From: a virus
Strand: one strand, 5' to 3'
Length of the DNA stretch: 37,172 nt
IMG/VR virus record: IMGVR_UViG_3300001832_000005
The notes under the pieces are model-generated. The model was not told the DNA's origin. It worked only from the letters and a program-made list of their open reading frames with translations, and did no database searches. Numbering within the stretch: position 1 is the stretch's first letter; every line of letters starts with the position of its first letter. Positions 1 through 37,172 of the stretch are shown piece after piece. The position numbers and the translations under genes are program-made.

Positions 1-21
1 CTGGAACAGGTAGAGTCGGGT
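1..21. repeat. 21-nt terminal overlap identical to 37152..37172; circular closure of the contig
   Basis: CTGGAACAGGTAGAGTCGGGT is read at both window ends, and an ORF continues in frame across the junction. Confidence 0.9.
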
Positions 22-2413: not shown

Positions 2414-4135
2414 TTGCAAGAACTACCAGAAAAGCTACTTGACTTTAGATATTTCTTAATCGTTACTTGGAGACATCTAAACCTACCAGACCCTACACCT
2501 GTTCAGCTAGATATAGCAGAATATCTACAACATGGGGCTAGAAGAAAGATCATACAGGGGTTTCGTGGGGTAGGTAAGAGTTGGATTACCAGTACTTATG
2601 TTGTTTGGCGATTAAGAATAGACCCACAACTAAAGTTTCTTGTGGTATCCGCTAGTAAAGACAGGGCTGATAACTTTACTACCTTTACTATGCGTCTTAT
2701 AAACGAGATGCCTATACTAGCTCCACTAATCCCCAGAGATGACCAGAGAAACAGTAAGGTAAGTTTTGATGTAAGACCTGCCAGTGCCGATCATGCACCC
2801 TCTTGTTCCTCTAAAGGGGTCTTATCGCAGCTTGCAGGGAGTCGTGCTGATGAAGTCATAGCAGATGATTGCGAAGTACCTAACAACAGCTTTACGCAGC
2901 CTATGAGAGACAAACTAGGCGAAGCTGTAAAAGAATTTGAAGCGATATTAAAACCAAACGGAAAGATTACCTTCCTTGGTACACCACAAGTAGAAAATAG
3001 TTTGTACCTAACACTAGAAGAACGTGGCTATGAAACACGAATATGGACAGCTAGGTACCCAAACCATAAAAACAACTATGGAGATCGCCTTGCTCCTCGT
3101 ATTGCAAAGAACTTATCAGAAGGAATTGCAGAACCAAAAGACCCTGTTGACCCTATAAGGTTCTCAGCCATTGATCTAATGGAGCGTGAAGCGTCTTATG
3201 GGCGATCAGGGTTCAATCTACAGTTCATGCTCGATACGACCCTTTCAGACCAAGATAGATACCCCTTAAAAATTAACGACCTAATAATTATGTCGGTCAA
3301 TAAAGAATACGCACCTGAAAAAGTTATATGGTCTAACTCTCCTGAGTATGTAATTACTGATTTACCCTGCGTTGGATTCAATGGAGACAGGTATCATAGA
3401 CCTGCACAGGAGTTCGGAGACTACATTGAATACACTGGCAGCGTAATGTTCGTTGACCCCTCTGGTACAGGAAAAGATCAGACAGCTATATCCTGTGTAA
3501 AGATGCTAAATGGTAACTTATTCGTTACAGAGTGCTTCGGTTTGTCGGGAGGTTACTCCGATAGAGTCCTAGAACGCATAGCTAGAACCGCAAAAGTCAA
3601 TAAAATCAACACGATAATCGTAGAACAGAACTTTGGTGGTGGTATGTTTTCACAATTACTAAAACCTTTTCTAATGACTTACCACCCTTGCGAAGTAAAA
3701 GACGTGCGAAATACCAAAACTAAAGAATTACGCATAATCGACACTTTAGAACCTGTAATGAACTCTCATAGACTTATTATTGACCGCAAAGTTATAGATA
3801 ATGACTTTAGATCAAACCCTGATGAGACTCCTGAAAGAAGACTTAAACTACAACTTGCCTATCAACTTAGTCGTATCTCTAGGAACAAAGGTTCGCTAGT
3901 TCATGATGACCTTTGTGACTCACTTGCAGGTGCAGTTGCCTATTGGACAGACTATATGGCTCAAACTGAAGACATGAATATCGCTAAAAGACATGATGAA
4001 TTACTTAATACACACCTAGAAAACTGGGGTGCTTTAGTAAATAACACAATATCTCAATCCGCTATGGGTATGACTCCTACTCAGATAAGAAATTCTAATG
4101 TACCTAATGATGGTTTCATAAGCGGAGCTTATTAG
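2414..4135 (+). CDS. terL: Terminase large subunit (T7 gp19-like)
   Basis: Walker A-like FRGVGKSWITS, and D-rich nuclease motifs (VIADDCE, MFVDPSGTGKDQTA). Apparent TTG start directly after the upstream TAA. Confidence 0.92.
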   Translation: MQELPEKLLDFRYFLIVTWRHLNLPDPTPVQLDIAEYLQHGARRKIIQGFRGVGKSWITSTYVVWRLRIDPQLKFLVVSASKDRADNFTTFTMRLINEMPILAPLIPRDDQRNSKVSFDVRPASADHAPSCSSKGVLSQLAGSRADEVIADDCEVPNNSFTQPMRDKLGEAVKEFEAILKPNGKITFLGTPQVENSLYLTLEERGYETRIWTARYPNHKNNYGDRLAPRIAKNLSEGIAEPKDPVDPIRFSAIDLMEREASYGRSGFNLQFMLDTTLSDQDRYPLKINDLIIMSVNKEYAPEKVIWSNSPEYVITDLPCVGFNGDRYHRPAQEFGDYIEYTGSVMFVDPSGTGKDQTAISCVKMLNGNLFVTECFGLSGGYSDRVLERIARTAKVNKINTIIVEQNFGGGMFSQLLKPFLMTYHPCEVKDVRNTKTKELRIIDTLEPVMNSHRLIIDRKVIDNDFRSNPDETPERRLKLQLAYQLSRISRNKGSLVHDDLCDSLAGAVAYWTDYMAQTEDMNIAKRHDELLNTHLENWGALVNNTISQSAMGMTPTQIRNSNVPNDGFISGAY

Positions 4136-4153
4136 GTTGCACTATAGGAGATT
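4130..4153 (+). promoter_or_regulatory. Phage single-subunit RNAP promoter candidate (SP6/K11/T7-like), +1 at G4147
   Basis: TATTAGGTTGCACTATAGGAG matches the remembered SP6 promoter ATTTAGGTGACACTATAGAAG at 16 of 21 positions. The CACTATAGG core is identical to T7. It overlaps the terL stop codon. Confidence 0.65.
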
Positions 4154-4256
4154 CCTCCGTATGGGTTGAGGTAGTTGTCTGATCGCAGCTACCTCGTACA
4201 CACTAAGATTACACTAGGATTATCTGAGTGGCGTCTATCCATCTCGTACAAAGATT
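4140..4256 (+). repeat. Cluster of short direct repeats and a hairpin in the presumed genome-end region
   Basis: CACTATAGGAGATT (4140), CACTAAGATT (4201) and CACTAGGATT (4212). CTCGTACA at 4193 and 4243. Hairpin GAGGTAG/CTACCTC at 4168-4195. Confidence 0.7.
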
Positions 4257-4456
4257 TTCCTGTGTGATCTTATCCAGAAAAAATTTTGGCAAAAAAATCT
4301 GAAGCCCTTACACTTCTCTCGGAAGTGCGATCTCCCCGTCTTGATTTTTTTATTTTCTTTGAGATTCTTCGATATTTGACATTTAATAAGTCAAAACCAC
4401 TGCTATGACTACAGTTTCAGAATATTACTACTATTCTTGAGGCTCTTCTGGTCAAA

Positions 4457-4616
4457 ATTTTTTATATATGCTTTTGTTTTTTCTTTTAATCGGTATGGGG
4501 TCAGGGATAAAAAATATAAATCAAAGAGAATAAAAAATATATATATAGGGATTCAAAAAGAAAAGAAAAAAAGAAACTAAAAGAAACAAAAAAGAAACTC
4601 AATAAAAAACTAAAAG
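4457..4616. repeat. AT-rich dyad with phased A-tract repeats; origin-like region
   Basis: T-rich arm 4457-4488, GC island CGGTATGGGGTCAGGG, (TA)5 at 4538-4547, a polypurine tract, and AAGAAAC at 4571, 4581 and 4592 (10-11 nt phasing). Confidence 0.45.
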
Positions 4617-4632
4617 TTGGTTATCAGGTAAA

Positions 4633-4656
4633 CAATGTTACAGAATGTAAACATTG
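4633..4656. promoter_or_regulatory. Inverted repeat CAATGTT-N10-AACATTG upstream of the early promoter; possible operator
   Basis: Perfect 7-bp arms read directly. Confidence 0.3.
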
Positions 4657-4716
4657 AATTTAATTAGTGATAGCAAAGGGAGTCAAAGAAAAAGGGAAAT
4701 AAATTAGCTGAGTTAG

Positions 4717-4746
4717 TTGACATACTGTATGCAGTAGGTTTATTGT
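4717..4746 (+). promoter_or_regulatory. Candidate host sigma70-type early promoter
   Basis: TTGACA (4717-4722), 18 nt, TATTGT (4741-4746), about 55 nt upstream of the first early gene. Confidence 0.45.
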
Positions 4747-4801
4747 AAAGCTATCAGGTTCAATACTTGATTTGCTTTAACCAATTTAAACAACCAAAAC
4801 C

Positions 4802-5761
4802 ATGACTATTTCAAAACCAAGAGTAAAAGTTGAAGAGGAAATTCTTAATGACTTCATGAGAATCCTAGAGGAGAACAAAGATTCTAGGAATCCTTGGTCT
4901 AAACCTTGGACTCCTAGCTCTTCGGAGGGTCACATTAATTTCCTTACTGGTAACAAATATCAGGGCATGAATGTAATTATTCTTGAGATGTATCAATTCT
5001 CAAAAGGTTATGAACTACCTTGTTGGATAGGCTACCAACAGGCAAAAAAAGAGTTCAACTGCGTGCCTAGAAAAGGCTCAAAAGCTGCTCGCATAGTACG
5101 TCCTAATCCTATCAAGATTGATGCTAAAGATGACAACGGCAACCCTATTCTTGACAAAGAGGGCAACCCAGAATTTTTCATGAAAATGACATTCAAGGGT
5201 GCCACTGTTTTCAATATCGCTGACCTAGTAGGTCTTGATGATAAAGCTCAAGAAAAGCTAGACCAAAAAATTGCAAGCTTCAAAACTAAATGTGTTGAAA
5301 ATGCAAGGCCACTTGCTGAAAGATGCAAAGCTGCTCATGATCGCTTGATGATCTTTAAAGATGAGCTAGAGGGCGGTCTAAATCATGGCTCAGATTCAGC
5401 CTACTACAGGCACGATCTTGACTCAGTGACCATGCCAAATAGGGAAGACTTCAAGAATGATGAAGCTTATCTTTCAACACTGGCTCATGAGTTTGCTCAT
5501 GCTACAGGTCATAAGGATAGATTGAATCGTAAGTGGTTAAACAACTACGCTCAATACAGGCCTCAAGAAGAGTTGGTTGCAGAATTCTCAAGCGTGCTTT
5601 TAGCTAATCGCTTACAGATCACTTGCGATACTCAAAACCACGCTTCATACCTTGGCGGTTGGGCTTCAAGAATCAAGGATTCAAAGAACCCTGCTCAAGA
5701 GTTATTCAAGGTCTTTGCATACGCTTCCAAGGCTGCTAATACAGTACTAGGAGAAGCTTAA
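4802..5761 (+). CDS. ArdC-like protein: N-terminal ssDNA-binding-type domain plus C-terminal HExxH zincin domain
   Basis: NPWSKPW...YQGMNVIILE matches the ArdC N-domain pattern. LAHEFAHATGHKDRLNR and EELVAEFSSVLL match the metallopeptidase domain pattern. Confidence 0.75.
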   Translation: MTISKPRVKVEEEILNDFMRILEENKDSRNPWSKPWTPSSSEGHINFLTGNKYQGMNVIILEMYQFSKGYELPCWIGYQQAKKEFNCVPRKGSKAARIVRPNPIKIDAKDDNGNPILDKEGNPEFFMKMTFKGATVFNIADLVGLDDKAQEKLDQKIASFKTKCVENARPLAERCKAAHDRLMIFKDELEGGLNHGSDSAYYRHDLDSVTMPNREDFKNDEAYLSTLAHEFAHATGHKDRLNRKWLNNYAQYRPQEELVAEFSSVLLANRLQITCDTQNHASYLGGWASRIKDSKNPAQELFKVFAYASKAANTVLGEA

Positions 5762-5776
5762 TCCAAGACGATTTCT

Positions 5777-5798
5777 AGGAGGGATTGACCTCCCTCCT
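5777..5798 (+). promoter_or_regulatory. Intercistronic RNA hairpin (8-bp perfect stem)
   Basis: AGGAGGGA ttgacc TCCCTCCT, with no U-tract after it. Confidence 0.5.
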
Positions 5799-5859
5799 TG
5801 AAGTCCTCTAACCAAGAACTTCACAATCAAAAAACTTTAACCAAAAGGAGATTAAAAAA

Positions 5860-6054
5860 ATGGGATTCAATCCTACAATGTTCGATCATCAAAGAGCTTT
5901 CGCAATAGCTCTTTCAACCAACAACAAAGTTGGTCAAATGATGAGATCAGGGCAAGAGATTATGTTTCAATACGGAACAGATACCGAGCTTTGTTTTAAA
6001 AATGCTTTGACTAGAAAAAGCTACTTCTTAAACTACCAAGGGCAGGAGGTCTAA
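5860..6054 (+). CDS. Hypothetical early protein (64 aa)
   Basis: ORF with SD AAGGAG 9 nt upstream. Confidence 0.6.
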   Translation: MGFNPTMFDHQRAFAIALSTNNKVGQMMRSGQEIMFQYGTDTELCFKNALTRKSYFLNYQGQEV

Positions 6055-6057
6055 ACA

Positions 6058-6186
6058 ATGCAAAGAGTAGAAATTATTAATTATGATCGCTTATCAAAAA
6101 GCGACCCACTTTTCCTTAAAGCTATTGAACAAATCAAAAGCCTAGGAATACATGATTCACAACTAAAACAAAAGGAGGTTAAGTAA
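6058..6186 (+). CDS. Hypothetical early protein (42 aa; not in ORF track)
   Basis: ATG at 6058 preceded by GGAGG. It ends in TAA directly before the ATG at 6187 and fills an otherwise unexplained gap. Confidence 0.5.
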   Translation: MQRVEIINYDRLSKSDPLFLKAIEQIKSLGIHDSQLKQKEVK

Positions 6187-6615
6187 ATGAAAGCAGGACA
6201 CTATCTCAAGTGGGCTGAAAAGTCTTTCAAGATTCTTGATAAGTTTCACTCAAGAATGTATGAACTATGGGAAGCTTCAGATGAGACTCAACACTTTGAT
6301 GATGACCTTAACTGTAGGCATCATGATCTTGAAAGAGCTTTAGATGATGACAACTATGACCGCCAAGGTTATGACCGCAACGGATACTTCTTGCAATTAC
6401 AAAGGCAAGATGAATCAATCCAAGGCTGTAATGATCGGGTCAAATATTATCTTGATGAGATTAAAAATCTTAAAGATAAAATCAAGAGAACCAAGGAGAA
6501 AAAAGAGAATCTTAAAACCGCAAGGGAGAAGATGATCTTAGACTTTGATATGGACTACAAGACCATAGAGAAGAGACTCTCCGAGGAGTATCCAGACTTC
6601 TTTCCAGTTGACTAA
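6187..6615 (+). CDS. Hypothetical early protein, acidic with a coiled-coil C-terminus (142 aa)
   Basis: ORF with SD AAGGAGG. Confidence 0.65.
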   Translation: MKAGHYLKWAEKSFKILDKFHSRMYELWEASDETQHFDDDLNCRHHDLERALDDDNYDRQGYDRNGYFLQLQRQDESIQGCNDRVKYYLDEIKNLKDKIKRTKEKKENLKTAREKMILDFDMDYKTIEKRLSEEYPDFFPVD

Positions 6616-6628
6616 TTGAAGCACGCTT

Positions 6629-6648
6629 GCAAGCTCTTCGGAGCTTGC
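6629..6648 (+). promoter_or_regulatory. Intercistronic hairpin with a UUCG tetraloop
   Basis: GCAAGCTC TTCG GAGCTTGC, followed by a second 6-bp hairpin GAGTGA/TCACTC (6651-6670). Confidence 0.55.
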
Positions 6649-6705
6649 CTGAGTGACTCATTACTCACTCACATTTAAACCTTAAACGATAGGAGATTAA
6701 GTACT

Positions 6706-7068
6706 ATGTACTATGGAAGAAAAGGGAACTCAGTTCCATTCTTGAATCCAACTGTATGGTTGGGTCACAAGTCAGACAAGATTCCCAAAGATGACAAGAC
6801 GTTTTATTTCTACCCTTGCATCAAAGTTCATCAAGCTTTAACAAGTAAAAGATGGACAGCTACCTTTGTTAACTATGGGGCTGACAACATAGTTAGTAAA
6901 AAGAAAAATGATGAGTCCTTATCTGAGTTTGAAAATGCTAAACTTGTTTGCTATCAGTTGATGGCTAGACAGACCAAGCATAAGAACAAGAGGGGTCTAA
7001 TCATAGGGGCAGGATACGATTATGACTATTGGTATTTCATAATTGACAGCCTAACAACAACGGATTGA
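6706..7068 (+). CDS. Hypothetical early protein (120 aa)
   Basis: ORF with SD TAGGAG. Confidence 0.65.
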   Translation: MYYGRKGNSVPFLNPTVWLGHKSDKIPKDDKTFYFYPCIKVHQALTSKRWTATFVNYGADNIVSKKKNDESLSEFENAKLVCYQLMARQTKHKNKRGLIIGAGYDYDYWYFIIDSLTTTD

Positions 7069-7084
7069 CAACTTCAATTCATTC

Positions 7085-7113
7085 GGGCATACTGTATTCA
7101 GGTATGCCCTTTT
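7085..7113 (+). terminator. Intrinsic terminator-like hairpin
   Basis: GGGCATAC tgtattcag GTATGCCC followed by TTTT. Confidence 0.6.
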
Positions 7114-7152
7114 CATACCCACCAACCAACCAAAACACAGGAGGTAAATCTA

Positions 7153-7359
7153 ATGGTTGACACATATCCACATAACTGGCTATCTCAAGAAGAGCCAAGG
7201 GATTACAAAAAAGACATCACACAAATTGATGATGGTCTTATTGGTATTCAGATTACCAAAGAAAATGCTAAAGACATTTCAAAAATCTGGGAAGCTCTCA
7301 AGTCTGTACCCGCCCCAAAGAAAGGGGAAGTATGGAAGCACAGAGGAGAGATGTCATGA
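7153..7359 (+). CDS. Hypothetical early protein (68 aa)
   Basis: SD AGGAGG. Preferred over the overlapping 7157..7390 frame because the next gene start overlaps its stop. Confidence 0.55.
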   Translation: MVDTYPHNWLSQEEPRDYKKDITQIDDGLIGIQITKENAKDISKIWEALKSVPAPKKGEVWKHRGEMS

Positions 7360-7487
7360 ACAATTCTTTGATGGAAGAGAGCTTTCATGATTGGCTCGAT
7401 CAATGCCCTAACAACTGGGTTCGTTTAGCTGCTGATGATGACTCATCAACCTATAAATTTTATAGGGAAGATCAGGAGGAAGACTAA
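7356..7487 (+). CDS. Hypothetical early protein (43 aa; not in ORF track)
   Basis: ATG overlaps the previous stop (ATGTCATGA), SD GAGGAG, and the ORF ends in a TAATG overlap with the next gene. Confidence 0.45.
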   Translation: MNNSLMEESFHDWLDQCPNNWVRLAADDDSSTYKFYREDQEED

Positions 7488-7711
7488 TGAGCATAAGTCA
7501 AATCGAAGTAGCTGTTGAGTTTCTCAAAGAGCGTGGTTGGGAGTTTCGACCCGCCCAAAAAATCGAAGGTGTCTTTAAACCTCTGGGTAAATATGATGCC
7601 AAGAATCCTGCTCAAGATGACTTCAGTGTTTATGACAACAACACTTTAAAATCTTTTGCATATTTGATTTCTAAAGCAGAGTCTCAAGGTAAAACTTGGA
7701 GGTATGTTTAA
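7487..7711 (+). CDS. Hypothetical early protein (74 aa)
   Basis: SD AGGAGG and a TAATG junction. Confidence 0.6.
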   Translation: MSISQIEVAVEFLKERGWEFRPAQKIEGVFKPLGKYDAKNPAQDDFSVYDNNTLKSFAYLISKAESQGKTWRYV

Positions 7712-7905
7712 TGCTTAGATCAAAGCACGCAATCTTTATGGAGCTTGATTGTATTCTCCATAGGGCTGCACAACTTACCGATAGAAACTTTACTATCATC
7801 TTGCCCTCTGATGAGGAGGGCAACCTCTTACTTGATGAGTCTATTGAACACTACAAGAAAGAGATTATTAAAACTATTAACCAAATCAAAACGGAGGAAC
7901 TTTAA
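7711..7905 (+). CDS. Hypothetical early protein (64 aa; start refined from track ORF 7696)
   Basis: ATG at 7711 overlaps the previous TAA; SD GGAGG lies 9 nt upstream. Confidence 0.55.
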   Translation: MLRSKHAIFMELDCILHRAAQLTDRNFTIILPSDEEGNLLLDESIEHYKKEIIKTINQIKTEEL

Positions 7906-7906
7906 A

Positions 7907-8224
7907 ATGCACAAGTCTGAAACAGTACACGTCTTTCCTGAAGATCATTTTGAATCTTTAGAATTTGTATGTCATGAAGATGGAATCTTTGATGACAGAT
8001 CAATAGGATACATTTCGGCAACTGACATAGCAGGAGATGAGGTTCATCTCCCTAACGTCAAGAGTCCTGCTGTAGTTAAATTCTTTGCTGACTTTATAGA
8101 GCTTGACAATGTGTTAAGAGAGAAGGACAAAGGGAATGTAGCAACCAAAGAAACCATGAATTACCTAAGAAAAATTCATAAGAAGATTGATGGTTGGATA
8201 CAGCAAGAGAAGGAGGACAAGTAA
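7907..8224 (+). CDS. Hypothetical acidic early protein (105 aa; start refined from track ORF 7745)
   Basis: ATG at 7907 preceded by CGGAGG. The upstream part of the track ORF overlaps the previous gene. Confidence 0.6.
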   Translation: MHKSETVHVFPEDHFESLEFVCHEDGIFDDRSIGYISATDIAGDEVHLPNVKSPAVVKFFADFIELDNVLREKDKGNVATKETMNYLRKIHKKIDGWIQQEKEDK

Positions 8225-8468: not shown

Positions 8469-9308
8469 ATGAAAAACAAAGTACCAACACTCAAGGAAGC
8501 TGCTTTCATAACCTACAAAAGGAGAAAGAACGGAGAGAAATCGGCTGATGATTTTCTCGTCAGCATGAAGCATAATATCCAAGCTCTTGGGAACATACCT
8601 GTAAACAAAATAACTACAAGTATGATTAGCAAGATGAATGACTACAACAAAGCAAGACCCAACTGCAACGAGGTAGTTAATAAAAAGATGGGGCATCTCA
8701 AGTTAGTACTTGATGATTGCAAAGATGATGGACACTTAACAATGCCTGAGTTTCCCAAGCCATTGAAGGTAAAGAAGAATAAGAAAGTTCATTACCTTAC
8801 AAATGAAATGGAGATTGAGCTATTGGATAAGGTCACAGAGCTAGGACATGATGAACATAGAGATGTATTCAAGTGCTTGATTGATCTAGGTTGCAGGTGC
8901 ATGGAGCTACTCACTCTTGAGAAAAGATTTATTGACTTTGAAAAGAATCAAATTACATTTCAAGAAAGGAAAAACGGAAGGCCAAACACTGTACCAATGA
9001 GTAACAAAGTAAGAGATATTATCAAGCCATACTATGACAAGTGCAATACGTTGGACTATGTATTCGACCATAATTATTATTGGGCTGAGAGTGTGTTCAA
9101 GAAGGTCAAGAAAGAACTAGGTTATGAGCAACACAAGTGGTACAGGATACATCTGTTTAGAGATACAGCAGGGTCAAGATTAGTACAACGTGGAGTACAT
9201 CTCTTGATAGTCAGAGATTGGTTAGGTCATGAAGATGTAAAGATGACAGAGAAGTATGCTCATCTTGCCCCTAACTCTATGCACTCAGTTGTGGAGGTCT
9301 TGAACTAA
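8469..9308 (+). CDS. int: Tyrosine recombinase / phage integrase (279 aa)
   Basis: Catalytic-type motifs: GCRCMELLTL (Arg), HLFRDTA (HxxR), WLGHEDVKMTEKYAHL (His and Tyr). Confidence 0.9.
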   Translation: MKNKVPTLKEAAFITYKRRKNGEKSADDFLVSMKHNIQALGNIPVNKITTSMISKMNDYNKARPNCNEVVNKKMGHLKLVLDDCKDDGHLTMPEFPKPLKVKKNKKVHYLTNEMEIELLDKVTELGHDEHRDVFKCLIDLGCRCMELLTLEKRFIDFEKNQITFQERKNGRPNTVPMSNKVRDIIKPYYDKCNTLDYVFDHNYYWAESVFKKVKKELGYEQHKWYRIHLFRDTAGSRLVQRGVHLLIVRDWLGHEDVKMTEKYAHLAPNSMHSVVEVLN

Positions 9309-9514
9309 TGAAGTTTACCGATAGCCAAATCTTTTTTATCAATGACTCGATAAGAAAAGAGTTAAATGAACAAGAAATATTTTTAAAATATTTAACTGAT
9401 CTAGCACAAAAAGAAAATGATTTAGTAAAGAAAAATAAGATCAATAAATCTGTTGAATTGTGTGTGCAAAAGATACAAGAACTTGAAGCGTTGAGAGGTT
9501 TACTTCATGAGTGA
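9308..9514 (+). CDS. Hypothetical coiled-coil protein (68 aa)
   Basis: TAATG junction with int, SD GGAGG, and an 8-nt overlap with the RNAP gene. Confidence 0.55.
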   Translation: MKFTDSQIFFINDSIRKELNEQEIFLKYLTDLAQKENDLVKKNKINKSVELCVQKIQELEALRGLLHE

Positions 9515-11909
9515 ACCAAGCAAGAAACAACTAGAGCTAGAGCAAAGTATTTTTAGCATCTCAGGGTATAACAAGATCAGTAAAAATAATAAACTCAGGG
9601 AGCAGGGAAGGGAGTCTGAAACATACTATGCTCGCAACATGATTGAAGCAGGGCTAGAGGAATTAACAAAGCAGACTCAGAACTATATATATAAATCCTT
9701 GAGTGGACAAGTAGGAGTCAAATCGTTAGCTGCTATATACCTAAATCAATTCCCTGATATTGACGTGGTTTCTTTTATAACTTTCAAGGTCATCATAGAC
9801 AACGTATCGCTAGGCAAAGTAACAACACAGGTAGCTATCAATATAGGTCAGATGTTGGAAGACGAAATGCGATACACAATCTTTGAAGAGCAAGACCCTA
9901 AACATTTCAAAGCAATCCAACATCATACCAGAGATACAAACCACCAAGGTTATAAAAAGAATATGGTCAGATCACACATGAGTAAGAAGGGCATAGAGTT
10001 CAAGACTTGGAGTAAAGAAAATAAATTAAAAATTGGTATGGTTCTGATTGACTTAGTTGTTAATCATATTGGAATGATAAAGCTTATAAACAAAAGGGTT
10101 GGCAAGACTACTACTTCATGCGTGGTCTTCACTGATGTAGCCGACAAGTGGATAAGAAAGAACAGAGCCAACCGCATAGCTGCTTATCCTTTGTATCTTC
10201 CTTGCTTCGATAAGCCCAAACAATATACAACTTTATTTGACGGAGGTTATTACACAGAGAGACTCAGGACTTCAGCTATCAAGACAACTAATCAAGAGAC
10301 ATTAAAAAAGTTACAAGAAGAAAACTTAACAGTATGTCTAAAGGCTCTAAACCTTGCGTCAAGTACTGCGTGGGGGGTAAATAAATTTGTGTTTGATATT
10401 CTTGTATATTGTTGGGAAGAAAGAATAGAAGTAGGTGGGTTGATTGATAGAGAGCCACTTGAATTACCAGTAAAGCCTGAAGGTTTTGGAGAAGATAAAG
10501 AGGTAACAAAACAATGGAGTTACCACGCAGGTTTAATTCATGATACAAACCACGCTAACAAAGTAAAGAGATTCCAAATACTTTCAATGATAGATACAGC
10601 AAAAAGTTATCTTGGGGAAAAATTTTTTCACGTTTATCAAATGGATTTTACTTCAAGACTTTATCCTGTTACCGCACACTTCCACCCACAGGGAACTGAT
10701 ATTGCCAGAGCCTTGCATCACTTCTATGAGGGTGCTGTTATCAAGACTAAGAAAGATGCTGATTGGTTGGCGATAGCAGGAGCTAATGCTTTTGGTTATA
10801 ACAAGTTGAGCTATGATGAAAGGCTAGAGTGGGCATACATAGAAGGGCAAGACTTTGCTGAACAGGTAGCACTCAACCCACTGGACAACATAGATATATG
10901 GGGTCAGGCAAAAGACCCTTGGCAATTCCTAGCTTGGTGTAGAGAGTGGTATGAATTTTGTCAGGTAGGATTGAAGGGAGAATATGTCTCACGTTTCTGT
11001 TGTTGTCTTGATGGTACTAACAATGGATACCAACATATTGCAGGGTTGATTTCATCTGAAGTACTAGCAAAGAAAGTTAATTTACAGAGAGCAAGTAAGC
11101 CACAGGATTTGTATAAAGATGTTCTAGTTAGAGTCATAGAAATACTTGACACAGATACAACAACGCAAGGCAAGAACTGGAATAAGATTTCAAAGCTGTT
11201 GACTAGAAAGTTTATAAAGAAACCAGTGCTGATGATTCCTTATAACTCAACGACCTTTGGCATAGCCAACTACATAGAAAAATATTTTGTCGCAAAAAAT
11301 ATTTCAATGGCAAAAAATTTTAAGAATAACTTTTACCTTGCTTCAGTAATCGAACAGGCTGTAAAAGATATATGTCCTGAAAGCTATCAAGTTTTAAATT
11401 ACTTGTCGAGGATAGCTCTATGTTTTAACAAAGAGAACAAGACTATCTCATGGCATACCCCCTCTGGGTTTCTAGTACAGCAGAAGTACTATACAAACCA
11501 GACTAAAAGAATCAAGACCAAGCTCAGTAATCAAACAGTTTACCTGAGTCTTGCCGAGCCTGACGAGAAGCTAGTCAATAAGAGAAAACAACTGCAAGGT
11601 TTCCCAAGTAATTATATACATTCCTTTGACGCTGCTCATCTACAGTTAAGCTTGGTTGAAGCAAGCAAGATGGATTTAAAACAGTTCTGTATTATTCATG
11701 ATTGCTTTGGTAGTCCTGCTGCTGAACTTGATAGGCTGATTGAATGTGTAAAGCAGACATTCTTCTACATATATAGTGATAATAATTTAGATAACTTACA
11801 TCATCAAGCAGCAGATCAATTAAGTAATACCAAGGGATTACCAACTGCACTACTGATGGGGGAGTTTGATATTACAGATGTGTTGACAGCACCATATATA
11901 TTTACATAG
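9507..11909 (+). CDS. T7-like single-subunit DNA-dependent RNA polymerase (800 aa)
   Basis: LDGTNNGYQH (motif A), KKPVLMIPYNSTTFG (cf. T7 KRSVMTLAYGS) and IIHDCFGS (motif C, cf. T7 HDSFG). Confidence 0.95.
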   Translation: MSEPSKKQLELEQSIFSISGYNKISKNNKLREQGRESETYYARNMIEAGLEELTKQTQNYIYKSLSGQVGVKSLAAIYLNQFPDIDVVSFITFKVIIDNVSLGKVTTQVAINIGQMLEDEMRYTIFEEQDPKHFKAIQHHTRDTNHQGYKKNMVRSHMSKKGIEFKTWSKENKLKIGMVLIDLVVNHIGMIKLINKRVGKTTTSCVVFTDVADKWIRKNRANRIAAYPLYLPCFDKPKQYTTLFDGGYYTERLRTSAIKTTNQETLKKLQEENLTVCLKALNLASSTAWGVNKFVFDILVYCWEERIEVGGLIDREPLELPVKPEGFGEDKEVTKQWSYHAGLIHDTNHANKVKRFQILSMIDTAKSYLGEKFFHVYQMDFTSRLYPVTAHFHPQGTDIARALHHFYEGAVIKTKKDADWLAIAGANAFGYNKLSYDERLEWAYIEGQDFAEQVALNPLDNIDIWGQAKDPWQFLAWCREWYEFCQVGLKGEYVSRFCCCLDGTNNGYQHIAGLISSEVLAKKVNLQRASKPQDLYKDVLVRVIEILDTDTTTQGKNWNKISKLLTRKFIKKPVLMIPYNSTTFGIANYIEKYFVAKNISMAKNFKNNFYLASVIEQAVKDICPESYQVLNYLSRIALCFNKENKTISWHTPSGFLVQQKYYTNQTKRIKTKLSNQTVYLSLAEPDEKLVNKRKQLQGFPSNYIHSFDAAHLQLSLVEASKMDLKQFCIIHDCFGSPAAELDRLIECVKQTFFYIYSDNNLDNLHHQAADQLSNTKGLPTALLMGEFDITDVLTAPYIFT

Positions 11910-11977
11910 CAAGAGATCAAGGTACAATTAGGGAACGTCTTTTTAAAGACGAATCACAAGAACAATCCAAGGTAAAC

Positions 11978-12646
11978 ATGGAATCAATTAAATCGGAGCA
12001 GATTAAAATAGTCACTCCTGTAGGAACACGCTTTCGTTATTCCTATCTCGTTACACCTGATGAATACATGGGTGTTGAGAAGTGGAAGACAGAAGCTATG
12101 ATACCTGTCGGCACAATCGTCAAGGTAAAAGAAGATGGCAAAGAAGTAGAACATGAAGCTACTCAATACATAGCCAACCAGTTAGAGAACTTACTTGAAG
12201 GTTGGAAGTCACAGTTAAAAGCTGCCTACCCAACTAGAACATTCACTCTTACAAAGAACAAGAACACAGGAAAGCCTACTTTTCCTTGGTCGTTTGAAGA
12301 AGACTATTTAATCCTGAAGCTTAAGAAAAATGTCAAAGGATTAAAAGGCAACAACCAACCGATACAACTGTTTAAGCATGACCCTGCTTCAGGACAAAAC
12401 TTATTGATGAGTGAAGCCGAAAGACAAACTATGAATAAGATTAGTCCAGAGACTACAGGCCAAGCAGCTATGCTTGCTTCTGGTTATGACGCACAGGGTA
12501 ATGGTGTTGGTATCAAACTATTCCCCATATCTTTTTGCTTCAGGGATATAGTTCCTTGGACAGGAGGAGGAGCAGATGATTTTGATACAACAGAACCATC
12601 AAGCTATGAAGAGAAAACTCCGACCGCAACCGCAGCAGACTTCTAA
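11978..12646 (+). CDS. T7 gp2.5-like ssDNA-binding protein (222 aa)
   Basis: N-terminus VGTRFRYSYLVTPDE (cf. gp2.5 AEPYAYIAKPD) and an acidic C-tail ending ...AADF with terminal Phe. Sits at the gp2.5 position. Confidence 0.8.
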   Translation: MESIKSEQIKIVTPVGTRFRYSYLVTPDEYMGVEKWKTEAMIPVGTIVKVKEDGKEVEHEATQYIANQLENLLEGWKSQLKAAYPTRTFTLTKNKNTGKPTFPWSFEEDYLILKLKKNVKGLKGNNQPIQLFKHDPASGQNLLMSEAERQTMNKISPETTGQAAMLASGYDAQGNGVGIKLFPISFCFRDIVPWTGGGADDFDTTEPSSYEEKTPTATAADF

Positions 12647-12995
12647 GTACAAGAGTAAATTTGAAAGTCAATTTGCTGACGACCTAAAAAAAAAGAAACT
12701 TATCTTTACCTATGAAACACTCAGCATTGACTATGAAATTACTTGCACCTATCGGCCTGACTTTATCCTCAACAATTTTATTGTTGAAACGAAGGGCTAC
12801 TTTTCCAAAGAAGATAGACGAAAGCATCTTGCGATTAAGGAGAAACGACCCGACCTAGATATAAGGTTCTGTTTTCAAAACAGCAAGACCAAACTATCCA
12901 AGGCCAAGAACTCTATCTCGTATGCCGATTGGTGTACGAGACATGGGTTTCAATACTGCGACAAATTTATTCCAGAAGATTGGTATGACAAGTAA
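12606..12995 (+). CDS. T7 endonuclease I (gp3-like Holliday-junction resolvase)
   Basis: YRPDFILNNFIVETKGYFSKEDRRKHLAIKEKRPDLDIRFCF closely parallels T7 gp3. Start is ATG 12606 (or 12576), overlapping the SSB gene end. Confidence 0.93.
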   Translation: MKRKLRPQPQQTSKYKSKFESQFADDLKKKKLIFTYETLSIDYEITCTYRPDFILNNFIVETKGYFSKEDRRKHLAIKEKRPDLDIRFCFQNSKTKLSKAKNSISYADWCTRHGFQYCDKFIPEDWYDK

Positions 12996-13161
12996 CCACA
13001 TAGATGATCGCAAGAATCAGATAAGCCACCGCATTTCTGATTTAATTTTTTTGCTAAATCAACTTGAAAAAAATAATCCATTTACTTATCCCAATGGAAC
13101 TACACATCATTTTGAATATCGACTAGCTCAGTACCAACACGTTAAATATCCAGATGCCTAA
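12985..13161 (+). CDS. Hypothetical small protein (58 aa; start refined from 12922)
   Basis: First ATG that does not deeply overlap the endonuclease gene. Confidence 0.4.
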   Translation: MTSNHIDDRKNQISHRISDLIFLLNQLEKNNPFTYPNGTTHHFEYRLAQYQHVKYPDA

Positions 13162-14785
13162 CTCAAGCTACAAAGTTAAAGAGGTTTGCCCTGAGTGTGG
13201 CAAGAAAAACTGTGCGGTCTTTAGTGATGGACATAAGCATTGTTTCACTATGGATTGCGGATACACTTACTACCCAAACAAGAAAAATTTATCGTCTGCT
13301 TACTCAAAGAAAATGATAGACAAAGTGACACCACTATTTAAAACAAGTCCAAAGCTATTGAAGGTAACACCTATAGCATTATCGAAACGTGGAATCACTA
13401 AAGAGACTTGCGAACTATTTGGATATGGACAGGCTGAATACAAAGGTATGCCTGTTCAAGTAGCTACATATAAAGATCAAAAGGGTAATGATGTAGCACA
13501 GCATATTAGATTCCCTGATAAGAAGTTTGCTTGGATAGGAGATATAAAAGAAGTACAGCTATGGGGTCAACATCTATGGCGTCAGCATGGCGGTAATGGT
13601 TCTGTCTTTGTAACTGTTTGCGAAGGAGAGATTGATTGCATGAGTGCTAGTCAGATACAGGGTAATAAGTTTCCCTGTGTATCTATTCCGTCAGGTGTAC
13701 AATCAGCAGCCAAGTATCTAGCAGCTAACTACAAATGGTTAGATACTTATTGTCGTATAGTTCTATGCTTTGATAATGATGAAGCAGGTAGGAAAGCAGC
13801 AGAGAAATGCTTGGAGGTTTTACCCAAGGGCAAAGTAGCAATAGCAAAGCTTGATCGTAATGACGTGAACGATCATCTGGTATTGAATGAAGGAGAGATA
13901 GTAAGACAAAAGTTATGGAAGGCTCGACCAGTAAGACCTGATAGTTTAATTAATGGAGCAGACGCATGGGATTTGTTTATTAAAGAAACAAGTAAACCAA
14001 TATCAGACTTTCCATTTCCAAAACTAAATGACTTTACAAGAGGTTTGTTTCCTAGCCAACTGTTCACAGTTGCTAGTGGAAGTGGAGCAGGTAAGTCCAC
14101 GATATGCAGAGAACTTGCATACCATTTCTTAACCAAGAATTTAAAGCTTGGTTACATAGGATTAGAAGAATCAGTACAAAGAACTTTACAGGGATTGGTT
14201 GGTATTGATATGAATGTACCGCTACACCTCGAAGATGATATTGACCCTGATGAAGTCAAGAGTTCATTTGATAAGCTGACATCTTCTCGTAACCTATATT
14301 TATATAATCACTTTGGTAGTCTTGACCCTGATGTATTGCTTGAGCAGATCAGATACTTAGCAACTGTTGATGGGGTTCAGATAGTAATACTAGATCATAT
14401 AACTATAGTTACTTCAGGTCTTGAATTAGAGAATGAAAGACGTGCTATTGATGTGACAATGACTAAGCTTAGAAGTCTATGCGAATCAACTGGCATAGCT
14501 TTGATACTTGTTAGTCATCTACGCAGACCGCAAGGACAATCACATGAGTCGGGCAGGGAGATTGATACTTCAGATTTGAAGGGGAGTTCTGGACTACTCC
14601 AACTTTCTGATGTTGTATTAGGTGCATCAAGGAATCAGGTAGGCGAAGCTAGTGAAAGACAAAGACTACAGTTAAAGATACTTAAGTCAAGACATACAGG
14701 TATGACAGGAGAAGTAGATAAGTTATTGTATGACCAAAAGACAGGCAGGTTAATAGTTTATGAAAACACATTCGGAGATTTATGA
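13154..14785 (+). CDS. T7 gp4-like primase-helicase
   Basis: Zn finger CPECGKKNC...HCFTMDCG; TOPRIM CEGEIDCMS and FDNDEAGRKAA; Walker A GSGAGKST; ILDHIT. Confidence 0.95.
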   Translation: MPNSSYKVKEVCPECGKKNCAVFSDGHKHCFTMDCGYTYYPNKKNLSSAYSKKMIDKVTPLFKTSPKLLKVTPIALSKRGITKETCELFGYGQAEYKGMPVQVATYKDQKGNDVAQHIRFPDKKFAWIGDIKEVQLWGQHLWRQHGGNGSVFVTVCEGEIDCMSASQIQGNKFPCVSIPSGVQSAAKYLAANYKWLDTYCRIVLCFDNDEAGRKAAEKCLEVLPKGKVAIAKLDRNDVNDHLVLNEGEIVRQKLWKARPVRPDSLINGADAWDLFIKETSKPISDFPFPKLNDFTRGLFPSQLFTVASGSGAGKSTICRELAYHFLTKNLKLGYIGLEESVQRTLQGLVGIDMNVPLHLEDDIDPDEVKSSFDKLTSSRNLYLYNHFGSLDPDVLLEQIRYLATVDGVQIVILDHITIVTSGLELENERRAIDVTMTKLRSLCESTGIALILVSHLRRPQGQSHESGREIDTSDLKGSSGLLQLSDVVLGASRNQVGEASERQRLQLKILKSRHTGMTGEVDKLLYDQKTGRLIVYENTFGDL

Positions 14786-15531
14786 CTTTACTTATTGATG
14801 CAGATTGGCTAGTCTTCTCTTCCTGTTGTGCAGGAGAAGTAGAGATACAATGGGATTCTTGGAATCATACCTTGCACTCCAATGCAAAGGATTGTTTAGC
14901 TATTGTTGAATCAAGACTAGAAGTATATAAGACAATAGCCAAAGCACAGCAAGAGAAAGTAAAGCATGATGTTGTCATGTGTTTTTCTGAGTACCCAACA
15001 TTTAGGCATGACATATTTCCTGAATATAAAATCCACAGGATAGGAAAAAGAAAACCACTAGCTATGAAACATACTATTGAATTACTTAAACAAGACTATG
15101 AATGTGTATCGTATCCCAACTTAGAAGGAGATGACGTACTCGGATTACTAGCCACTAATGGTAAGTATGAGAATCCAGTTATAGTTTCAGTTGATAAAGA
15201 CATGAGAACTATACCCTGCTTACTCATAAGCACTGAAGCAGTAGAACATATTACAGAGAAGAAAGCTATGCGACACTGGTTTGAAATGGCTATAGCGGGA
15301 GATGCCACAGACGGAATCATAGGAGTCAAGGGATTGGGTATGGTAACTGCAAGCAAGTTACTTGCCGATATTCCTGACACACAAGATGCACTATGGTCTA
15401 AAGTTGCAGAGACATATACAAAGAAGGGCTACTCGTTAGCTGATGCCATACTCAATGCAAGGCTTACAAGAATACTTAGAGAAGGAGATTATAACTACAG
15501 TACTGGCGAAGTAAAACTTTGGAATCCATAA
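14782..15531 (+). CDS. T7 gp6-like 5'-3' exonuclease
   Basis: DADWLVF, LEGDDVLG, VSVDKDMRTIP, GDATDGIIGVKGLG and a C-terminus ...KLWNP parallel T7 gp6. ATGA overlap with the helicase gene. Confidence 0.95.
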   Translation: MTLLIDADWLVFSSCCAGEVEIQWDSWNHTLHSNAKDCLAIVESRLEVYKTIAKAQQEKVKHDVVMCFSEYPTFRHDIFPEYKIHRIGKRKPLAMKHTIELLKQDYECVSYPNLEGDDVLGLLATNGKYENPVIVSVDKDMRTIPCLLISTEAVEHITEKKAMRHWFEMAIAGDATDGIIGVKGLGMVTASKLLADIPDTQDALWSKVAETYTKKGYSLADAILNARLTRILREGDYNYSTGEVKLWNP

Positions 15532-15584
15532 AAAAAACTCTAGGAAAAACGACAGGAGAGGTCAAAAACCTAGAGCTTTTTTTT
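15531..15584. terminator. Terminator-like structure at the replication/structural module boundary
   Basis: A7-CTCTAGG ... CCTAGAG-C-T8 (A-run and T-run flank the stem, so it looks bidirectional). A second hairpin CAATGGG/CCCATTG lies at 15592-15613. Confidence 0.55.
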
Positions 15585-15672
15585 GCTTTACCAATGGGAA
15601 ACCACCCCCATTGATTAAATTGTAGCATGAAATCTATACAAAACTATTTATATTTTCAGATTAAGAGTTACT

Positions 15673-15894
15673 ATGATAATAGTTTCAATCTTATTCTTGG
15701 CAGTTAAGTTACCACAAATTACTGATGACTTGATACAAGGACTAGATGAGGTCTTTCCTAACCGCCAACCTGAACTGTCATTTTCTGATAAGGAGGTTTG
15801 GTATCGGGCAGGGCAAAGGTTTGTTGTTGATTACTTAATCGACCAACAAAAGAGACAACGTGAAACTATGTTAACTGAACAAGTTTTAGATTAG
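15673..15894 (+). CDS. Hypothetical protein with a hydrophobic N-terminus (73 aa)
   Basis: ORF track entry; first ORF of the late block. Confidence 0.5.
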   Translation: MIIVSILFLAVKLPQITDDLIQGLDEVFPNRQPELSFSDKEVWYRAGQRFVVDYLIDQQKRQRETMLTEQVLD

Positions 15895-15898
15895 TACT

Positions 15899-16195
15899 AT
15901 GTGTTTCGGCTCTAAACCTAAAGCACCTGAAAAACCCAAGAAAGCTGAGTTTACAGATGCACCTCCTGTAGTTACAGGTAAACAGGAAGATGTTGAAAAT
16001 CCATTTGATACTAAGAAAATTACAGATCAGTTGAAACTTAGAAGGAAGAAGAAAGAGAAAGGTATTAAGATCAAAAAAGGCGACCCTGATTTATCAAACG
16101 TCAGGATAGCAGGTCTTAATCCTGAAACTGATACTAGAAAAAAATCTGGTACAGGTAGTATGTCTTCTCCCTATAACACGAAATCTATTTATTAA
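15899..16195 (+). CDS. Hypothetical basic protein starting MCFG (98 aa)
   Basis: Lys-rich; shares the VVTG(K/Q)Q motif with the next ORF. Confidence 0.55.
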   Translation: MCFGSKPKAPEKPKKAEFTDAPPVVTGKQEDVENPFDTKKITDQLKLRRKKKEKGIKIKKGDPDLSNVRIAGLNPETDTRKKSGTGSMSSPYNTKSIY

Positions 16196-16200
16196 AAACT

Positions 16201-16449
16201 ATGTGCGTTTTCTCAGCCCCACCACCTCCCCCACCACTACCAGACCCAGAGCCTACAGCACCTAAAGGCGAAAAGACAGCAGAACAAGTTGTTACTGGAC
16301 AGCAAAGAACTACAGTTAAAAAGAAAGGTCAGAAGATGGGTAGAACTGCTGCAAGAGATGCAGGTAGAAAAGGTACAGCATCATTAAGAATACCTTTACT
16401 AGGTAAAAAAGAGACTACCAGAAGCGGTAACTTAAACACACCTATCTAA
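16201..16449 (+). CDS. Hypothetical basic, Pro-rich protein starting MCVF (82 aa)
   Basis: PPPPPPLPDPEP tract; apparent paralogue of 15899..16195. Confidence 0.55.
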   Translation: MCVFSAPPPPPPLPDPEPTAPKGEKTAEQVVTGQQRTTVKKKGQKMGRTAARDAGRKGTASLRIPLLGKKETTRSGNLNTPI

Positions 16450-16455
16450 AACAAT

Positions 16456-18063
16456 ATGGAATATGAATCTCCTGTAGGTACAGCAGCGTCACTGTATGAA
16501 CAGTATGCTACTGAACGATCTTCTTATCTTAGAGAAGGGCAGGAGTCTAGTAAATATACACTGCCATATTTGATACCTGAAACCGCAGCAGGTAGTGGTT
16601 CAAGAAGGACTAAAATCAAAACAAACTATCAAGGGATTGGAGCAGCAGGTACTAATAGTCTTGCTGCAAAACTCTTGACAGGTTTGTTTCCTACAAACGT
16701 ACCATTTTTTAAATTAGTTTTAGACAAAATAAAAATAGCTCAAGAAGAAGCAGGAGCAGAAGCGATAACAGAAATAGATAAGGCTTTGCGTAAGGTAGAA
16801 AATGCTTTGATGAGAGAGATTGAAGTTTCTACAGATAGAGTTGCTATGTTTGAAGCTTTAAAACATTTAGTAGTTGGTGGAAATGTTTTACTGTATTTAA
16901 CTGAAGAAGGATTACAAGTATATCCTTTAGAAAAATATGTTTGTAAACGTGATGCTACTGGTAATACTATAGAAATTATTATCAAAGAAACTATAAGTGC
17001 TAAAGCTTTACCTCCTGCTTTTCTTGAAAACATAAAACAGAAAGCAGAGTACACAGAAAAAACACTTGAAGAAGAATTAGATATTTACACACACGTCAAA
17101 AGAGATGGAGATTATTTTAATTATCATCAAGAATGTAAAAACGAAATCATACCAAACACAGAAGGTAGAGCAAAGAAAGATGTATCTCCTTTTATAAATC
17201 TCAGATTTACTCGACTTAGTGGAGAAAGCTACGGAAGAGGATATGTTGAAGAGTACCGAGGAGATTTAATTTCTCTTGAAGGATTGATGAAAGCAATAAT
17301 TGAAAATGCTGCTGCGTCTGCCCGAACAGTTTTTCTTGTAAATCCAAATGGCACAACCAGAGCTAGTACCCTAGCTAAAGCACCTAACGGAGCCATAAGA
17401 GAAGGTAATGCACAAGACATATCAGTTATGCAGGTAGGTAAAGGACAAGACTTACAGGTTTCTTTTCAAGCGATACAAAGAATAGAACAAAGATTACAAT
17501 ACGCTTTCCTTATGGCTAAAGCAGTACAACGTGACGCTGAAAGGGTTACAAGCACAGAGCTAAAGATATTAACACAGGAATTAGAATCAACACTTGGAGG
17601 AATCTACTCTATTTTAAGTTCAGAACTACAGTTACCTTACCTAAGAAGACGTATGCACCTACTTGTTAAGTCAGGTAGAGTTCCCAAGCTACCTGACGAC
17701 ATAGTTGGCATCTCAATAGTTACAGGATTACAAGGTCTTGGTAGAGGACAAGACAAAGAAAAGCTACTTGAGTTTATTACAGTGATGGCACAGGCTTTAG
17801 GGGCTGATGTCATGAGACAATACGTTAATCTTGACGAAGCTATCAAGCGTCTAGCTACCAGTATTGGCATTGAAACTGAGAATTTGGTAAAATCAGAAGA
17901 AGAAATCGCTGCTGAACAACAACAAATGCAACAACAAGAACTTATTAGAAGTCTTGGAAGTGCTGCTGTAGGTTCTCCGTTACTTGACCCCAAGAAACAA
18001 GCTGAAGCAGGATTAATTAATCAAGAGGTAACTGCAAATGCCAACCAAGAAGGCCAAATCTAG
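16456..18063 (+). CDS. Portal (head-tail connector) protein, T7 gp8-like
   Basis: FEALKHLVVGGNVLLYL, GESYGRGYVEEYRGDLISLEGL and ELESTLGGIYSILSSELQLPYLRR parallel T7 gp8. Confidence 0.96.
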   Translation: MEYESPVGTAASLYEQYATERSSYLREGQESSKYTLPYLIPETAAGSGSRRTKIKTNYQGIGAAGTNSLAAKLLTGLFPTNVPFFKLVLDKIKIAQEEAGAEAITEIDKALRKVENALMREIEVSTDRVAMFEALKHLVVGGNVLLYLTEEGLQVYPLEKYVCKRDATGNTIEIIIKETISAKALPPAFLENIKQKAEYTEKTLEEELDIYTHVKRDGDYFNYHQECKNEIIPNTEGRAKKDVSPFINLRFTRLSGESYGRGYVEEYRGDLISLEGLMKAIIENAAASARTVFLVNPNGTTRASTLAKAPNGAIREGNAQDISVMQVGKGQDLQVSFQAIQRIEQRLQYAFLMAKAVQRDAERVTSTELKILTQELESTLGGIYSILSSELQLPYLRRRMHLLVKSGRVPKLPDDIVGISIVTGLQGLGRGQDKEKLLEFITVMAQALGADVMRQYVNLDEAIKRLATSIGIETENLVKSEEEIAAEQQQMQQQELIRSLGSAAVGSPLLDPKKQAEAGLINQEVTANANQEGQI

Positions 18064-24044: not shown

Positions 24045-24497
24045 ATGGGTCATTTAAGAAAATGTACCCTCAAAGACTTGCACTATGTAAGCGATAACAT
24101 GAGAGAGATTGATAAACTAGAAGCTCTCTATCAAGCAGACCAAGACCCTGAAACTGCATTAAAAGTTTCATACTTAGCTAGTAAAGAAGTAATGGCAATC
24201 TGTGGAGATGAAGATAACCCTATTGGTATTTGTGGTGTAACTCCTAATGGCTGTATCTATATGGTTTCTACTGAAGAGCTATTTAATAATAAAAAATACA
24301 GAATACAATTAATTAGAAAAGGTAGAATATGGGTTGATGAGTTAATGAAATCATATACAATTCTATATAATGTTGTATATGCAGAAAACGTAGCAGCTAT
24401 GAAGTGGTTAGAAAGTTTAGGATTTAAATTTATCGAGTATCATGAAGAATATGGTGTACATAAAAAACCTTTTTATCAATTCATGAGGATAGCCTAA
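24045..24497 (+). CDS. T7 gp13-like internal virion protein (GNAT-like fold family)
   Basis: MREIDKLEA...ICGV...YNVVYAENVAAMKWLESLGFKF matches the gp13-family pattern as remembered; synteny fits. Confidence 0.65.
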   Translation: MGHLRKCTLKDLHYVSDNMREIDKLEALYQADQDPETALKVSYLASKEVMAICGDEDNPIGICGVTPNGCIYMVSTEELFNNKKYRIQLIRKGRIWVDELMKSYTILYNVVYAENVAAMKWLESLGFKFIEYHEEYGVHKKPFYQFMRIA

Positions 24498-25120: not shown

Positions 25121-25122
25121 TT

Positions 25123-28122: not shown

Positions 28123-28125
28123 AAG

Positions 28126-32553: not shown

Positions 32554-32555
32554 CT

Positions 32556-33503: not shown

Positions 33504-33505
33504 TT

Positions 33506-37043: not shown

Positions 37044-37172
37044 TTGGATTATCCACAAATTGATATACCAGAAAGTTTAGTACCGCCTAAAACAATTTTT
37101 TATCCACCTGTGGCAGACGTTCCATATTTAGACCCTCTACTTCTTCCAAGTCTGGAACAGGTAGAGTCGGGT
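37044..37172 (+). CDS. 5' part of the wrap-around ORF continuing at 1..360 (about 155 aa after removing the 21-nt overlap)
   Basis: The frame is open from TTG at 37044 (GTG at 37110 is an alternative start) to the window end. It is in frame with 1..360 through the shared 21-mer. Confidence 0.5.
   Translation, partial: MDYPQIDIPESLVPPKTIFYPPVADVPYLDPLLLPSLEQVESG
37152..37172. repeat. 21-nt terminal overlap identical to 1..21
   Basis: Exact identity read directly. Confidence 0.9.

Follow-up and report, generated by a model that had tools for sequence, protein, structure and literature searches.

Among the T7-like podoviruses of Prochlorococcus, the MPP-C clade is represented by 18 isolates plaque-purified on Prochlorococcus MED4, whose genomes of 37.3-37.9 kb contain no DNA polymerase gene and no auxiliary metabolic genes, and the clade accounts for about half of the cyanopodovirus reads in surface oceans (Cai et al. 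2022, PMC9860041). These isolates (P-SCSP2, P-SCSP1a-u) correspond to subgroups AG-1.3/1.4 of the marine Autographiviridae; the polymerase-less subgroups in a 2025 survey of that family are AG-1.2, 1.3, 1.4 and AG-11, and loss of the polymerase has been a known exception to the classical Autographiviridae since 2022 (PMC12361551). Genomes smaller than 40 kb tend to be without a polymerase (Kazlauskas et al. 2016, as cited in PMC9860041). In this study, we analysed a stretch of viral DNA of 37,172 nucleotides, the IMG/VR record IMGVR_UViG_3300001832_000005 (hereafter the window), and in particular its T7-type replication module at 11978-15531, in which no polymerase gene is recognisable. The reading that we favour, with a probability of roughly 0.88, is that the window is an MPP-C genome whose polymerase gene was lost ancestrally and cleanly, and that a host DNA polymerase copies the phage DNA. 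The initial annotation of the window, made from the letters alone, had called such a phage unusual. That judgement does not hold for a described and globally abundant lineage (MPP-C in PMC9860041; AG-1.2, 1.3 and 1.4 in PMC12361551): neither the phenomenon nor, in essence, this genome is new to the public record, and the observation is correct but known.

The module consists of the following features, given with the matches on which each call is based.

11978-12646, plus strand: single-stranded DNA-binding protein (SSB) with a gp2.5 fold and a disordered C-terminal tail; weak match to phrog_112 (6.5e-5), AlphaFold2 model matched by Foldseek to 1je5.
12606-12995, plus strand: endonuclease I, a Holliday junction resolvase of the T7 gp3 type; PF05367 (3e-37), tblastn with P-SSP7 gp3 (2e-23).
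12922-13161, plus strand: small open reading frame (ORF) of 79 aa between endonuclease I and the helicase.
13154-14785, plus strand: full-length primase-helicase of the gp4 type; Pfam Helic-prim_T7_N, Toprim_2 and DnaB_C.
14782-14785, plus strand: ATGA overlap of the helicase stop (TGA) and the exonuclease start (ATG), read directly in the sequence.
14782-15531, plus strand: 5'-3' exonuclease of the gp6/FEN type, 249 aa; Pfam 5_3_exonuc_N (PF02739, 1.6e-14) and 5_3_exonuc (PF01367).

The coordinates and gene calls of the initial annotation for this module were right, as judged by the Pfam, PHROG and PDB matches and by direct reading of the ATGA. Its description of the four replication proteins as clear homologues of T7 gp2.5, gp3, gp4 and gp6 stands for the last three; the SSB resembles gp2.5 at the level of the fold only. 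The helicase aligns to residues 16-542 of the 566 of T7 gp4 (PDB 6n7i, 2e-93) and combines the zinc-binding domain, with a CxxC...CxxC motif at its N-terminus, the Toprim primase domain and the RecA-type hexameric helicase domain in one chain. The exonuclease also matches phrog_107 (2.5e-48) and is found by tblastn with P-SSP7 gp6 (8e-41). The endonuclease I ORF opens at 12576; translation probably starts at 12606, still inside the last part of the SSB gene. For the 79-aa ORF we found no Pfam or PHROG match, and its conservation in P-SCSP2 is only partial. In the genome of P-SCSP2 (OM416780), an intact and unannotated ORF of 139 aa at 5209-5628 is 91% identical to the endonuclease I of the window and overlaps the SSB gene by 74 nt. 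That phage has been stated to have no recognisable endonuclease (Cai et al. 2022, PMC9860041); the absence looks like an omission in gene calling, not a difference in gene content.

The assignment of the SSB holds only through structure, because the sequence-level tests are not significant: a phmmer search against PDB sequences gave no match, hhalign against T7 gp2.5 gave E = 0.27, and the alignment to P-SSP7 gp2.5 was not significant either. An AlphaFold2 model built from 15 clade sequences (pLDDT 75.9) had T7 gp2.5 (1je5) as its top Foldseek match in the PDB (E 5e-6, probability 1.0, TM 0.49-0.62), followed by other SSBs of the gp2.5 type (DUF2815, Enc34), and a search of BFVD returned many viral SSBs. 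By this model, the protein is a remote SSB with the gp2.5-type OB fold and is predicted to bind single-stranded DNA.

The classical definition of the Autographiviridae counts a family A DNA polymerase among the core genes, and none was found in the window. Pfam scans covered the 19 largest plus-strand ORFs, the 177-aa minus-strand ORF and all other stop-to-stop ORFs of at least 60 aa in six frames. This was the six-frame profile search for polymerases and primase-polymerases that the initial annotation had proposed, and it detected no DNA polymerase, primase-polymerase or reverse-transcriptase family at E <= 0.1. We also ran tblastn with the DNA polymerase of P-SSP7, a phage of MPP-B, using its exonuclease and polymerase parts as separate queries. 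These queries reached E values no better than ~1-2 in the window and 0.1-0.6 in P-SCSP2, which amounts to chance, and the same queries recovered T7 gp5 at 6e-28 and 4e-56 as a positive control. The earlier claim that no ORF shows a family A or B polymerase is thus borne out by the six-frame scan and the controlled tblastn, and by these searches no remnant of a polymerase gene is left in the window.

In T7, P-SSP7, Syn5 and the pelagiphage HTVC011P, the helicase and exonuclease genes are separated by the polymerase gene together with one to several small ORFs; T7, P-SSP7 and Syn5 carry a family A DNA polymerase and one to three small ORFs between gp4 and gp6, which the window lacks, although it shares with these three the order RNA polymerase (RNAP), SSB, endonuclease I, primase-helicase and, further on, exonuclease, as well as the same structural module. 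A search of IMG/VR with the helicase returned at least 582 relatives, of which 80 loci were fetched and, together with P-SCSP2, compared as 81 related loci. The exonuclease directly follows the helicase in 79 of them, the two exceptions being contigs that terminate just past the helicase. The gap between the aligned ends of the two genes is 0-12 nt in 78 of the 81 loci and 88 nt in one, and no family A polymerase match was found within 6 kb on either side of the helicase in any of the 81. P-SCSP2 has its helicase at 5757-7373 and its exonuclease at 7376-8119, and in P-SCSP1a (helicase 4552-6171, exonuclease 6168-6911) the annotated genes share a 4-bp overlap, as in the window. The initial annotation had taken the ATGA junction to be native and had proposed a comparison with the nearest relatives; the relatives share the polymerase-less junction, and the 79 loci and the isolates P-SCSP2 and P-SCSP1a bear out its view. 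This comparison excludes an assembly artefact. An assembly error or a deletion variant would mean that the polymerase was lost from the assembly or from a defective subpopulation, and we give that explanation practically no weight. The same junction recurs in independent contigs from many samples as well as in P-SCSP2, P-SCSP1a has the identical overlapping stop and start, the MPP-C isolates are plaque-purified lytic phages of 37.3-37.9 kb, and the size of the window agrees with that of the clade; all that speaks for an error is the general point that a metagenomic circle was closed on a 21-bp overlap by one assembler.

That overlap is an exact direct repeat at the ends of the window (1-21 = 37152-37172), which leaves a unique length of 37,151 bp. 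It is the circularisation overlap of the assembler, and the assembly is circularly closed. T7-like genomes are physically linear with terminal repeats, and the circle therefore reflects the assembly, not the topology of the genome. At 37,151 bp the window falls marginally below the published MPP-C range of 37.3-37.9 kb. In the phage collection it is matched best by Prochlorococcus phage P-SCSP2, with 73% nucleotide identity over 86% of 11000-17000, followed by an uncultured Mediterranean fosmid, with the P-SCSP1 series further off; the gene order is syntenic with that of P-SCSP2, and the start point differs. Protein identities to P-SCSP2, P-SCSP1a and P-SSP7 are, in that order, as follows.

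Helicase: 85%, 51% and 36%.
Terminase large subunit (TerL): 86%, 51% and 45%.
Major capsid protein: 82%, 47% and 30%.

By these pairwise identities, the core genes are nearer to those of the P-SCSP phages than to those of MPP-A/B. Like MPP-C phages, the window has a T7-like order with an RNAP, a size of ~37 kb, no polymerase, no auxiliary metabolic genes and a helicase that adjoins the exonuclease, and it shares with them an inverted three-gene cassette of membrane and secreted proteins; like P-SCSP2, it carries an integrase and an ArdC-like gene. MPP-A/B phages carry RNR, psbA and other auxiliary genes, whereas the Pfam scans of all ORFs of at least 60 aa found no psbA, hli, mazG, rnr, talC or thyX family in the window. 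On these comparisons we assign the window to the MPP-C clade, with P-SCSP2 as its closest cultured relative. A high-light Prochlorococcus host is suggested by its relatives, which were isolated on MED4. At only ~73% nucleotide identity to P-SCSP2, and with internal virion and fibre genes that are unrelated at the sequence level to those of that phage, the window represents a species or genus-level lineage separate from the cultured isolates. Another IMG/VR contig, IMGVR_UViG_3300020424_000001, is 95.7% identical to the window in nucleotide sequence over 12.5 kb.

A further explanation for the missing gene is that the window is a satellite or helper-dependent element, which would rely on a co-infecting phage that encodes a polymerase. 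Nothing beyond the absence of the polymerase gene points that way, and the chance that it is right is negligible in our view: the set of structural, packaging and lysis genes in the window is complete, and the plaque-purified close relatives grow alone on Prochlorococcus MED4, where their latent periods have been measured.

The phage keeps an RNAP, a gp2.5-fold SSB, endonuclease I, a complete primase-helicase and a FEN-type exonuclease, and it has no recognisable polymerase. In the reading that we favour, a family A DNA polymerase gene between gp4 and gp6 would have been lost ancestrally and cleanly in MPP-C, with the result that the primase-helicase gene abuts the exonuclease gene. The phage primase-helicase would then unwind and prime the phage DNA, the SSB would coat the single strands, and a host DNA polymerase would carry out synthesis. 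Pol I and the phage exonuclease would process primers, beside Pol III at the fork, and endonuclease I and the exonuclease would also recycle host DNA and resolve concatemers, as in T7. The borrowing of a host polymerase, one of two options raised in the initial annotation, is the best reading when no polymerase can be detected, and it agrees with the published hypotheses for MPP-C.

Phages λ, SPP1 and P22 encode their own helicase and no polymerase and use the host Pol III. These phages and P4 resemble the window in pairing their own fork-opening or priming proteins with a borrowed Pol III; they differ from it in that they fall outside the T7-like phages, encode no RNAP of their own and rely on other helicase families or loaders. 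We favour the Pol III holoenzyme as the likeliest fork polymerase on the precedent of these phages, which bring a helicase and no polymerase, and by this analogy we would give it about an even chance. Several points weigh against a host enzyme, or against Pol III in particular. We found no work in the literature that shows which host polymerase serves MPP-C. The replication proteins contain no credible beta-clamp-binding motif, the only matches lying inside buried core motifs of the helicase, and T7-type primases make very short primers, which the clamp loading of Pol III may not accept. In addition, the N-terminal 850 aa of the protein at the gp15 position and ~650 aa of the protein at the gp16 position are without annotation, and a polymerase with an entirely new fold could escape profile methods.

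The last two points bear on the possibility of a DNA polymerase of the phage's own, highly divergent or of a novel fold, which might reside, for example, in the N-terminal parts of the proteins at the gp15 and gp16 positions or in one of the small early proteins. A very divergent phage polymerase is the third hypothesis of Cai et al. 2022 (PMC9860041). Several ORFs of the window are indeed without annotation. In the protein at the gp15 position (999 aa), the C-terminal glucosaminidase is the one annotated part; the protein at the gp16 position (1475 aa) has a match to an internal-virion-protein family alone (phrog_6651, residues 656-1194), and a search of PDB sequences with both gave nothing relevant. 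The pattern of conservation argues against a hidden polymerase, since all members of the clade ought to retain an essential replicase, and the large virion proteins are its least conserved genes. The unannotated ORFs common to the window, P-SCSP2 and P-SCSP1a are all of 177 aa or less. Among them, the 177-aa and 121-aa minus-strand ORFs and a 62-aa ORF (1666-1854) are also present in P-SSP7, which carries a polymerase, and the conserved unknowns of 58-88 aa are too small for a replicative polymerase. With the six-frame Pfam scan also free of polymerase families at E <= 0.1, we regard a phage-encoded enzyme as very improbable.

A host enzyme thus remains our preferred source of synthesis, and Pol I, the cellular homologue of T7 gp5, is the other candidate for the main replicase, made processive by a phage or host factor. 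We consider this possible but doubtful. Pol I is known to extend RNA-primed origins in ColE1-type replication, and T7-type origins are primed by RNAP transcripts; the conserved Asp-Phe tail of the SSB is an element that in T7 docks a family A polymerase. However, Pol I has low processivity and is without the thioredoxin-binding loop of gp5, and the MPP-C helicase has no Asp-Phe tail of the kind through which T7 gp4 contacts its family A polymerase. Like the product of the lost gene, Pol I is a family A polymerase, and it stands first where Cai et al. 2022 (PMC9860041) offer host Pol I and host Pol III as hypotheses. The longer latent period that these authors describe for MPP-C (PMC9860041) fits dependence on a host enzyme and does not discriminate Pol I from Pol III.

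Both C-terminal tails were compared across the clade. The SSB ends in ...TPTATAADF, and its tail, which ends in ...SYEEKTPTATAADF, is disordered in the model (pLDDT <50 for residues 197-222). The ...ADF terminus is present in all 68 of the 68 complete SSB homologues of the clade in the fetched loci, preceded by a conserved SYEE motif. The tail is far less acidic than that of T7 gp2.5. Asp-Phe termini occur in every T7-like SSB that we compared (T7, P-SSP7, P-RSP2, Syn5 and HTVC011P), and the tail of T7 gp2.5 also serves helicase binding and autoregulation of single-stranded DNA binding. The initial annotation was right that the SSB ends in a terminal Phe and gave this too much weight: the tail is a family trait, whose retention does not indicate a polymerase partner in particular, and with Asp-Phe termini found family-wide we reject it as a special clue.

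The tail of the helicase behaves differently from that of the SSB. In T7, the Asp-Phe tail of gp4 docks gp5, and the gp4 proteins of T7, P-SSP7, P-RSP2 and Syn5 all terminate in Asp-Phe. The helicase of the window ends in ...YENTFGDL and has no acidic Asp-Phe tail; a terminal Phe is present in none of 82 clade helicases, whose chains stop 3-8 residues past a conserved GRLxVYE motif. Within the cyanopodoviruses, loss of the helicase Asp-Phe tail tracks loss of the polymerase, as a weak correlation. The correlation is not general, because HTVC011P carries a polymerase and its helicase nevertheless has a short end, ...SSFDE, without such a tail; tail loss as a general signature of polymerase loss is rejected by this case.

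Phages of MPP-C escape surveys that use DNA polymerase as a marker. Which polymerase replicates such abundant phages is a real question. The window offers no fresh lead on it, since earlier publications already cover the lineage, the loss of the gene and the proposed mechanisms. The conservation pattern that speaks against a cryptic polymerase, the loss of the helicase tail and the invariant ADF terminus of the SSB are small additions that slightly narrow the hypotheses.

The remainder of the window has a T7-like architecture, with the RNAP, the class II replication genes and the class III structural genes nearly all on one strand, and a GC content of 36%. Besides the replication module, the ORF list and profile searches give the following features.

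2192-2413: terminase small subunit (TerS), from the ORF list and profile searches.
2414-4135: TerL, from the ORF list and profile searches.
After TerL and before 4802: non-coding gap of 670 bp.
4802-5761: ArdC-like protein, followed by small early ORFs.
8469-9308: integrase.
9507-11909, plus strand: T7-type single-subunit RNAP, 800 aa; Pfam RNA_pol (3e-84) and RPOL_N, phrog_414 (7e-189).
Between the exonuclease and the portal: three small ORFs.
16456-18063: portal, followed by scaffold, capsid, tail tube and nozzle.
Downstream of the nozzle: internal proteins at the gp13, gp14, gp15 and gp16 positions, then fibres.

The cassette shared with MPP-C consists of three minus-strand genes (528-1622) in an otherwise single-strand genome. 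They encode a 177-aa protein with a signal peptide (phrog_1755), a 121-aa lipoprotein-like protein that begins MKKLLLLGLFLVAPC (phrog_650) and an 84-aa membrane protein (DUF6450). The cassette is 74-89% identical in P-SCSP2 and P-SCSP1a, where it also lies on the minus strand, and P-SSP7 carries homologues of two of its genes on the plus strand (38442-39184), which indicates an inversion of the cassette in MPP-C. Its genes may form a module for lysis or for the envelope.

The 670-bp gap after TerL is AT-rich, with runs of poly-A and poly-T, and contains one sigma-70-like site (4717-4746); a promoter scan of 4136-4801 gave no more sites than shuffled sequence. The ArdC-like protein encoded next to it combines an ArdC-N domain with a zincin metallopeptidase domain (PF08401 and PF18818; phrog_7245, 'anti-restriction'). 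Its orthologue in P-SCSP2 is gene 42, annotated as hypothetical and 61% identical, and P-SCSP1a has none. If the physical end of the genome lies in the gap, the ArdC-like gene would enter the cell first, analogous to T7 gp0.3 (Ocr).

The RNAP shares 64% identity with its counterpart in P-SCSP2 and only 24% with the one in P-SCSP1a, about the same level as with P-SSP7 (26%). Set against the helicase values of 85% and 51% for the first two phages, this shows an RNAP lineage that differs sharply within MPP-C, which suggests module exchange or very uneven rates. P-SCSP2 shares the tyrosine integrase at 8469-9308, with 52% identity, and P-SCSP1a has none; in the window, ARAGORN detected neither a tRNA nor a tRNA-like attP, and an Rfam scan found no RNA family. 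From 24497 to 36733, the proteins at the gp14, gp15 and gp16 positions and an RCC1-repeat fibre (1075 aa) show little or no similarity to their counterparts in P-SCSP2 and P-SCSP1a, while the genes that flank these variable proteins are 60-85% identical, and the GC content falls to ~31% across 25-30 kb. By this comparison, 24497-36733 is a putative hypervariable region for interaction with the host.

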